Notes under the pieces: generated by a model
The model's database searches: none
What the model was told of the DNA's origin: nothing
What the model saw: the letters and a program-made list of their open reading frames with translations, nothing else
Translations under genes and position numbers: made by a program
Virus record (IMG/VR): IMGVR_UViG_2627853732_000005
Reading direction: 5' to 3' (one strand)
Source of the DNA: a virus
Lineage: Duplodnaviria > Heunggongvirae > Uroviricota > Caudoviricetes
DNA length: 22,433 nucleotides
Shown here: positions 19,431 through 20,565 of the stretch, in pieces
How positions within the stretch are numbered: the stretch's first letter is position 1
Layout of the letters: each line of letters begins with the position of its first letter

Positions 19431-19771
19431 TTATTCAGTTCTGGATTTTGTCGCCCTGCGTATCCGCGCTTTCGCGTTACGCTCAATCTGTATCAGCTTT
19501 TCTATATTTCTCCGCCTTTCCTGTTCCTCCTGGCGCAATAGCCTTACATCATCTGCCAGTCTGGTTTCTCTTTTTGCCACAGAGAGCATCCAGTCAAACG
19601 GCTCCACAACCGCACCGCAGATTTTACAGCGGACCTGACGCTCTTTTTCGTCAACCCGGACAGAGGCGTGATGGCAATATGGTCTTTCCGATGGTTCATA
19701 AAGAAAATTAACCTGATTACGTGGGTCATCCTCTTTTACCGGAAATAAAACGATATTGCTTAACTCATCTT
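19431..19771 (-). pseudogene. C-terminal 113 codons of a Zn-ribbon/coiled-coil protein gene split by IS1 copy 2 (absent from the ORF track)
   Basis: Open frame ...DELSNIVLFPVKEDDPRNQVNFLYEPSERPYCHHASVRVDEKERQVRCKICGAVVEPFDWMLSV...RRATKSRTE with stop at 19431-19433. It runs into the IS1 left end. The first in-frame start codon is under 60 codons from the stop, which explains why the track misses it. Confidence 0.6.
19762..19771. repeat. target-site duplication of IS1 copy 2, left copy (AACTCATCTT; 9 or 10 bp)
   Basis: Identical 10-mer directly abuts both ends of the IS1 (19762-19771 and 20540-20549). Confidence 0.85.
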
Positions 19772-19826
19772 GGTGATGCTGCCAACTTACTGATTTAGTG
19801 TATGATGGTGTTTTTGAGGTGCTCCA

Positions 19827-20102
19827 GTGGCTTCTGTTTCTATCAGCTGTCCCTCCTGTTCAGCTACTGACGGGGTGGTGCGTAACGGCAAAAGCACTGC
19901 CGGACATCAGCGCTATCTCTGCTCTCACTGCCGTAAAACATGGCAACTGCAGTTCACTTACACCGCTTCTCAACCCGGTACGCACCAGAAAATCATTGAT
20001 ATGGCCATGAATGGCGTTGGATGCCGGGCAACAGCACGCATTATGGGCGTTGGCCTCAACACGATTTTACGTCACTTAAAAAACTCAGGCCGCAGTCGGT
20101 AA
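19827..20102 (+). CDS. insA: IS1 InsA
   Basis: 91 aa, identical in translation to copy 1. Confidence 0.95.
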
Positions 20103-20524
20103 CCTCGCGCATACAGCCGGGCAGTGACGTCATCGTCTGCGCGGAAATGGACGAACAGTGGGGCTATGTCGGGGCTAAATCGCGCCAGCGCTGGCTGTTT
20201 TACGCGTATGACAGTCTCCGGAAGACGGTTGTTGCGCACGTATTCGGTGAACGCACTATGGCGACGCTGGGGCGTCTTATGAGCCTGCTGTCACCCTTTG
20301 ACGTGGTGATATGGATGACGGATGGCTGGCCGCTGTATGAATCCCGCCTGAAGGGAAAGCTGCACGTAATCAGCAAGCGATATACGCAGCGAATTGAGCG
20401 GCATAACCTGAATCTGAGGCAGCACCTGGCACGGCTGGGACGGAAGTCGCTGTCGTTCTCAAAATCGGTGGAGCTGCATGACAAAGTCATCGGGCATTAT
20501 CTGAACATAAAACACTATCAATAA
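20021..20524 (+). CDS. insB: IS1 InsB reading frame
   Basis: 167 aa; one N-terminal difference from copy 1 (NST versus NCT). Confidence 0.9.
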
Positions 20525-20539
20525 GTTGGAGTCATTACC

Positions 20540-20549
20540 AACTCATCTT
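20540..20549. repeat. target-site duplication of IS1 copy 2, right copy
   Basis: See 19762..19771. Confidence 0.85.
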
Positions 20550-20565
20550 CTGGTTTTATTTCCAT
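20550..20565 (-). pseudogene. start codon and first 5 codons (MEIKP) of the IS1-split Zn-ribbon gene
   Basis: ATG at 20563-20565 preceded by AAAGGAGAGGAGC; in phase with the 19431..19771 part once IS1 and one duplication copy are removed; in-frame stop 20 codons upstream. Confidence 0.55.

Follow-up and report, generated by a model that had tools for sequence, protein, structure and literature searches.

IS1 insertion in a 118-codon early accessory gene of a Shigella-type lambdoid prophage remnant

An accessory gene of 118 codons has been killed by an IS1A-like element, which transposed into its codon 9 and duplicated 10 bp of target sequence. The locus lies in a 22,433-nt stretch of DNA recorded as a virus of the Caudoviricetes (IMG/VR record IMGVR_UViG_2627853732_000005; hereafter the window, all positions referring to it unless a locus is named). 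What remains of the gene is a 15-residue stub running into IS1 and a 3′ fragment with neither promoter nor start codon. Taken as a whole, the explanation developed here (IS1 pseudogenisation, inherited in a lineage of the Shigella sonnei type, of a mid-operon gene whose protein would have the role proposed below) is very probably correct. The event itself is textbook IS1 insertional inactivation and nothing new in kind.

The element occupies 19772..20539 on the plus strand (768 bp), antisense to the gene it splits. It has the length expected of IS1 (~768 bp), canonical ends (GGTGATGCTGCC... and ...GGAGTCATTACC) and the terminal inverted repeats GGTGATGCTGCCAACTTACTGAT and GGTAATGACTCCAACTTATTGAT, and shares 99.9% identity with elements whose annotation reads ‘IS1-like element IS1A family transposase’. 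Two overlapping frames on the plus strand appear in the ORF list, insA at 19827-20102 and insB at 20021-20524, and the same ORFs in an identical locus (L012) match the Pfam families Zn_ribbon_InsA, HTH_Tnp_IS1 and DDE_Tnp_IS1. A perfect direct repeat had been reported around this element, the second IS1 copy of the window, in a first-pass annotation made from the sequence alone; it is found on both sides as the 10-bp motif AACTCATCTT, the left copy at 19762-19771 and the right copy at 20540-20549. The empty site of Escherichia coli FDAARGOS_944 holds a single copy of AACTCATCTT (locus L002, 6663-6672). Target duplications of IS1 usually measure 9 bp. Compared with classical IS1 inactivation in Shigella genome decay, the present case is the same in its 768-bp length, canonical inverted repeats, insA/insB frames, direct repeat and empty site in a relative; the sole difference is a duplication of 10 bp, 1 bp above the usual 9.

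Excision in silico of 19772..20549, which comprises IS1 and one repeat copy, regains a minus-strand ORF of 118 codons in which the ATG at 20565 is joined in frame to 19771..19434 and followed by a stop codon at 19431-19433, the product being MEIKPEDELSNIVLFPVKEDDPRNQVNFLYEPSERPYCHHASVRVDEKERQVRCKICGAVVEPFDWMLSVAKRETRLADDVRLLRQEEQERRRNIEKLIQIERNAKARIRRATKSRTE. The first-pass annotation had described the gene as exactly reconstructable in this way, with the ATG in phase with the open frame once IS1 and one repeat were removed; both statements are borne out at these positions, and re-translation returns the very protein it quoted. Read along the minus strand, the insertion site runs AAAGGAGAGGAGC ATG GAA ATA AAA CCA GAA GAT GAG TT and then enters the right inverted repeat of IS1, GGTAATGACTCCAACTTATTGATAG. 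The 5′ fragment (20540..20565, −) thus contains the ATG (20565-20563), codons 1–8 and two further nucleotides, ends in the right copy of the target duplication and is now read through into IS1 to yield the 15-residue product. Direct reading of the sequence places a Shine-Dalgarno region, AAAGGAGAGGAGC, immediately 5′ of the ATG (20566..20578, −). The 3′ fragment (19431..19771, −) retains codons 6–118 in part together with the stop, and has no canonical start codon ahead of a GTG at 19607.

At this locus, the mechanical ORF list gives, as had been pointed out, an ORF of 61 aa in a different frame (19544..19729, −), and also an in-frame 58-aa tail starting from the GTG (19431..19607, −). That the gene is missing from the ORF track, a further claim of the first reading, is true of this list only; in S. 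sonnei deposits, the 3′ fragment is carried as a 107-aa CDS starting at an ATC (19754) and reading IVLFPV... (window 19431-19754, −; locus L012, 3585-3908). The fragment protein is found on 263 contigs under the names ‘Bacteriophage protein’ or ‘hypothetical protein [Shigella]’. This CDS with its ATC start is spurious, an artefact of annotation.

The intact form of the gene is well represented elsewhere. The reconstructed DNA is identical at 357 of 357 nt to an uninterrupted gene of E. coli FDAARGOS_944 (NZ_CP065613.1), which alone among E. coli genomes has an intact gene of 100% identity, and its product WP_000403784.1 (‘hypothetical protein’) has the same 118-aa sequence as the reconstruction. 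In megablast comparisons, 1679 of 5426 complete E. coli genomes (31%) were found to carry the intact gene, in up to five copies each and always as a ‘hypothetical protein’. Full-length copies with 97.5-99.2% identity were detected by tblastn in phage ArgO145 (gp17), four Stx2a-converting phages and several other coliphages, and copies at 32-44% identity in phages of Klebsiella, Serratia, Enterobacter, Hafnia and Providencia. ArgO145 gp17 (YP_009907882.1) differs from the reconstruction by R93K only; it and WP_000403784.1 share length, start and zinc-ligand pattern with the reconstruction, whereas the window copy alone is interrupted by IS1 after codon 8. The search for an uninterrupted gene in related prophages, suggested at the outset as a check, returns matches at 97-100% identity in E. 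coli prophages and in the Stx2a and ArgO145 phages. Nothing contradicts the insertion event: no relative was found to assign its two halves to separate genes, and no empty site to lack AACTCATCTT.

Could the reconstructed ORF be a chance frame or an artefact made of unrelated halves? The one point that speaks for this, its absence from the mechanical ORF list, is outweighed by the identity over all 357 nt to an annotated intact gene, by a match of residues 1-117 to the profile of PHROG 1621 (E=3e-56) and by 148 homologues found across Enterobacterales, whose zinc-ligand pattern is conserved. The reading is refuted and its probability is negligible; the reality of the gene is far beyond chance.

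The same IS1 at the same place was found, by way of the neighbouring DUF4014 protein, in at least seven genomes that are 99.8-99.98% identical to window positions 15120..22433. They include HE616528.1, which we take to be S. sonnei 53G, and a cluster look-up returns the fragment protein under the name Shigella sonnei. By comparison, the insertion is an inherited marker of an S. sonnei-type lineage and not a recent event, because its junction recurs in these seven genomes and in none of the 5426 complete E. coli genomes; the exact junction had no match among GTDB species-representative genomes either. The exact intact 118-aa protein is also on record under S. sonnei names. In S. sonnei, a second copy of the gene, resident in another prophage, is interrupted near codon 80 by an element of the IS3 family (P0050; contigs L018-L020), and other Shigella entries (P0057, P0058, P0060) end at codons 73-77 with differing tails. 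The Shigella truncations thus amount to several disruptions, independent of one another, of this one small gene. Intact gene and IS1 insertion alike are already present in public genomes, and the case is one of ordinary IS pseudogenisation.

The position of the gene in its operon can be read from intact relatives. In FDAARGOS_944, the gene order on the strand of the intact gene is YdaU/O-like, DnaC-like ATPase, DUF977, the intact gene, DUF4014, HNH, a 221-aa ORF, DUF551, hok, DUF1367, YbcO, DUF1133 (Q-like), tRNAs and holin. These genes form the rightward early operon of a prophage that is lambdoid and Rac-like. The part of this order that flanks the split gene is recognizable in the window, all on the minus strand. 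Upstream lies the 3′ end of the DUF977-family gene (20623..20678; stop at 20623-20625), of which the last 56 nt are kept, with a 100% match to L002 7985-8054; its stop is 57 bp upstream of the split-gene ATG. Downstream, 92 bp separate the stop of the split gene from the start of the DUF4014 gene (19120..19338), followed by an HNH endonuclease gene (18753..19118; 121 aa as annotated in relatives), a gene for a 221-aa hypothetical protein without family (18091..18756) and a DUF551 gene (17726..18091). In FDAARGOS_944, the 57-bp spacer between DUF977 and the homologue of the split gene harbours ISEc52 (IS3 family; L002 6736-7984), ~48 bp 5′ of the ATG. The HNH gene (18753-19118, −) gives weak matches in PADLOC to the HNH protein PtuB of Septu (best E=3e-8); these probably reflect the shared HNH motif only, since no PtuA partner lies nearby.

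Other prophages place the homologue differently. DUF977 is likewise directly upstream of the second S. sonnei copy, while in Serratia and Erwinia prophages the homologue sits between RusA and Q and its start overlaps the upstream stop by 4 nt. A 4-nt start/stop overlap is also seen in Klebsiella prophages, in which the homologue lies between YbcO and YlcG/Q. In phage ArgO145, it occupies the early-left (exo-xis/Ea22) region with an Ead/Ea22-like gene on either side; one Ea22-like gene there overlaps the homologue by 23 nt. No conserved partner gene emerges, the neighbours varying by phage (DUF977, Ea22-like genes, RusA/YbcO and Q). By comparison, the gene did not lead its operon; its ancestral place is inside the long rightward early transcript, directly following the replication genes and then DUF977, and preceding DUF4014–HNH–ORF221–DUF551 ... 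Q.

In the window, the upstream part of this transcript is gone. An IS600 of 1264 bp (20679-21942, +) is inserted in the DUF977 gene, and on its far side adjoins a phage integrase remnant (21943-22433, +), followed in sister genomes by a PF01171 (TtcA-like) gene. In S. sonnei 53G, the corresponding IS600 (L012, 1396-2660) has entered the DUF977 gene by simple insertion, duplicating 3 bp (CTA), and the replication genes are preserved on its far side. A secondary deletion is recognized in the window because the far flank of IS600 is here the integrase remnant, as opposed to the replication genes in 53G; by this comparison, a later IS600-mediated deletion has removed the immunity and replication region of the prophage, extending as far as the integrase remnant.

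These facts bear on the role that the first-pass annotation had assigned to the split gene, that of first gene of the operon continuing into the four-gene cassette. Were it promoter-proximal in a five-gene operon, the main effect of IS1 would be polar silencing of the four genes downstream. The shared strand and the close spacing (92 bp from stop to DUF4014 start) agree with such an arrangement. IS1 is classically polar in both orientations, and with translation ending 15 codons in, ~750 nt of antisense IS1 RNA would remain untranslated. However, the place at the head of the operon is not supported, because the DUF977 gene, on the same strand, ends just ahead of the split gene, a scan of 17000-20800 showed no promoter-like site on the minus strand, and the distant homologues of other genera overlap their upstream gene by 4 nt. 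In addition, IS600 and the deletion took the upstream operon, leaving little transcription for IS1 to be polar on. Silencing of a downstream operon as the main consequence is thus unlikely, and the loss of a mid-operon gene is the preferred reading. Polarity of IS1 on the cassette as such is plausible but largely moot, because IS600 and the secondary deletion cut the cassette from any native upstream promoter and no evident promoter is left.

An adaptive origin of the insertion has also been weighed, either through a protein harmful to Shigella and repeatedly knocked out, or through a promoter in IS1 driving the DUF4014–HNH–DUF551 cassette. Several independent truncations are seen in Shigella (P0050 near codon 80 by an IS3-family element, and P0057, P0058 and P0060), FDAARGOS_944 has ISEc52 shortly upstream of the ATG, and hybrid promoters can form at IS1 ends. 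Set against this, chance hits are to be expected in a 22-kb window with two IS1 and at least four IS600 copies or fragments, the exact intact protein is recorded under S. sonnei names too, the intact gene is tolerated in nearly a third of the E. coli genomes at up to five copies, and no promoter-like site leads out of IS1 on the minus strand. Adaptation is accordingly very improbable, and ordinary, inherited pseudogenisation is retained. A hybrid promoter formed at the IS1 end and directed into the 3′ fragment was also considered and rejected: the TTGGCA in that end is not followed at 16-18 nt by an acceptable −10 element, and no site on the minus strand is listed by the scan.

By comparison with relatives, the IS1 event is one of many IS1 and IS600 insertions and IS-mediated deletions that degrade this prophage. 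The first IS1 copy (16256-17023) lies ~92 bp 3′ of the stop of hok (hok 17116-17328, −; sok RNA 17266-17440, −). It replaces 135 bp present in FDAARGOS_944 (L002 3790-3924) and has no target duplication, and is therefore read as an IS1-associated deletion, which, by analogy, may have removed the 3′ fold-back element of the hok mRNA. K-12 offers examples of hok loci inactivated by IS elements. Farther along, partial and tandem IS600 copies pile up at 12228-13797 (12228-12715, 12708-13503 and 13503-13797; neighbouring features at 11894-12259 and 13980-14290). The pile-up links a truncated tail gene directly to the tRNA cluster (Gly-TCC, Thr-TGT, Arg-TCT and a CAT anticodon) that follows the Q-like gene, and the lysis, terminase and head modules are deleted there. 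A Mu-type transposase fragment (rve and Mu-transpos_C_2; 2522-3238, −) lies between IS600 copies at 1446-2622 (−) and 3296-4559 (+), the latter with a clean 3-bp AAC duplication; intact-looking genes for Lom (5363-5962) and the J tail tip (6030-9509) follow it.

The reconstructed protein belongs to PHROG 1621, a family with no function assigned, while Pfam, NCBIfam and PADLOC yielded no family above threshold for the 118-aa sequence. Likewise, a PDB sequence-profile search with it gave no match at E<=10, Foldseek found no significant structural relative, and no study of the PHROG 1621/WP_000403784.1 family was found in the literature on DUF4014/DUF551 and nin-region zinc ribbons. Beyond the 148 close homologues, the family amounts to 1630 clusters at 50% identity (E<=1e-3). 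Its alignments define a short N-terminal motif (E-x-EL-x-N-V-V-x-F-P), four invariant residues (C38, H40, C54 and C57), a conserved P-F-D turn, also present in the reconstruction, and a C-terminal helix motif, NIEKLIQIERNAKARIRR, that is near-invariant in close homologues and reads E-R-N-x-K-A-R-[LI]-x-R in distant ones; the reconstructed protein carries the ERNxKARxRR helix of the family. The metal-binding element had first been described as C-H-H...C-x2-C: its cysteines and second histidine stand, but H39 is variable, and the conserved pattern is C-x-H...C-x2-C. The R/E/K-rich helical tail noticed at the same time agrees with the basic helix of the alignments and of a structural model.

This AlphaFold2 model was computed from 36 sequences for P0001, a homologue 96% identical to the reconstruction and not the reconstruction itself. 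It reaches a mean pLDDT of 74.7, with low confidence for the N-terminal 40 residues, two β-hairpins at 43-61 (ribbon pLDDT ~72-74) and a single helix at 63-117 (~55 residues; pLDDT >90 for 81-110). An acidic N-terminus (pI 4.25) is combined with a basic helix (pI 11.1) that shows an a/d heptad pattern. The intact protein would comprise an acidic, disordered N-terminus, then a predicted C-x-H/C-x2-C zinc ribbon, then an amphipathic, strongly basic helix of ~55 residues. Pfam searches of ten distant and ten longer or fused members recovered only Ead_Ea22 fusions. Three rare homologues (P0002, P0043 and P0122) are fused in frame to the Ead/Ea22 N-terminal domain (PF13935). The family may supply Ea22-like proteins with an alternative C-terminal module, or else the fusions may be artefacts caused by frameshifts; such fusions fit the mosaic nature of Ea22 proteins, which consist of portable domains (PMC10834534).

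The best resemblance in both Pfam and Foldseek is the TFIIB zinc ribbon (PF08271); as in that ribbon, the metal ligands number four and are set in two knuckles about a pair of β-hairpins. The PF08271 match falls below the Pfam cut-off (21.5 versus 29 bits), and the top Foldseek match, 1pft, has E=0.56 over 27 columns for a ribbon modelled at a pLDDT of only ~72-74; moreover, the first knuckle is C-x-H here instead of C-x2-C/H, and there is no cyclin-fold core. The likeness is one of fold type only. The lambda nin-region and exo-xis proteins (NinH, Ea22, Ea8.5 and the like) fill the same slots, just upstream of Q or beside Ead/Ea22-like genes, and are, like the family of the split gene, small, dispensable early proteins of mosaic and portable character, with rare Ead/Ea22 coiled-coil fusions. 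They differ in that no similarity of sequence or fold was detected; PF13935 (Ead_Ea22) has no match on the 118-aa protein and occurs only in the rare fusion homologues, so the Ea22 link is one of neighbourhood and fusion. The RNA polymerase binders of the DksA/TraR type offer an analogy, that of a small protein of phages or plasmids in which a zinc module is combined with a long helix; their C4 finger is C-terminal, after the coiled coil. In the present protein, by contrast, the ribbon comes first and the ligands are C-H-C-C and not C4, and the zf-dskA_traR family gave no Pfam match at E<=1. Among PADLOC anti-phage defence models, none of the families matched the 118-aa protein.

Most likely, though with low confidence and by analogy, the intact protein would be a small coiled-coil dimer with a zinc ribbon, whose target early in lytic development would be nucleic acid or a conserved host machine, in the manner of other nin-region and exo-xis accessory proteins. 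The gene is tentatively considered dispensable for the host, and its loss would therefore have no expected phenotype. The family is broad and unnamed, its gene often being the one that immediately precedes the Q antiterminator, and one may ask whether it represents an unrecognised conserved lambdoid regulator, for instance a dimeric factor binding RNA polymerase, the replisome or DNA through the ERNxKARxRR helix and the NVVxFP motif. This is unlikely, and the window adds nothing to it because its copy is dead. The gene is already catalogued as a hypothetical prophage protein and the insertion is already contained in published genomes. The locus is a clean case of a gene turned into a pseudogene by IS1 within a prophage remnant of the Shigella type: the IS-split gene escapes a mechanical ORF list, and deposits contain a spurious 107-aa fragment that starts at ATC. 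Its wider point lies only in the intact protein, which comes from a very common, uncharacterised enterobacterial prophage family located in regulatory early regions.
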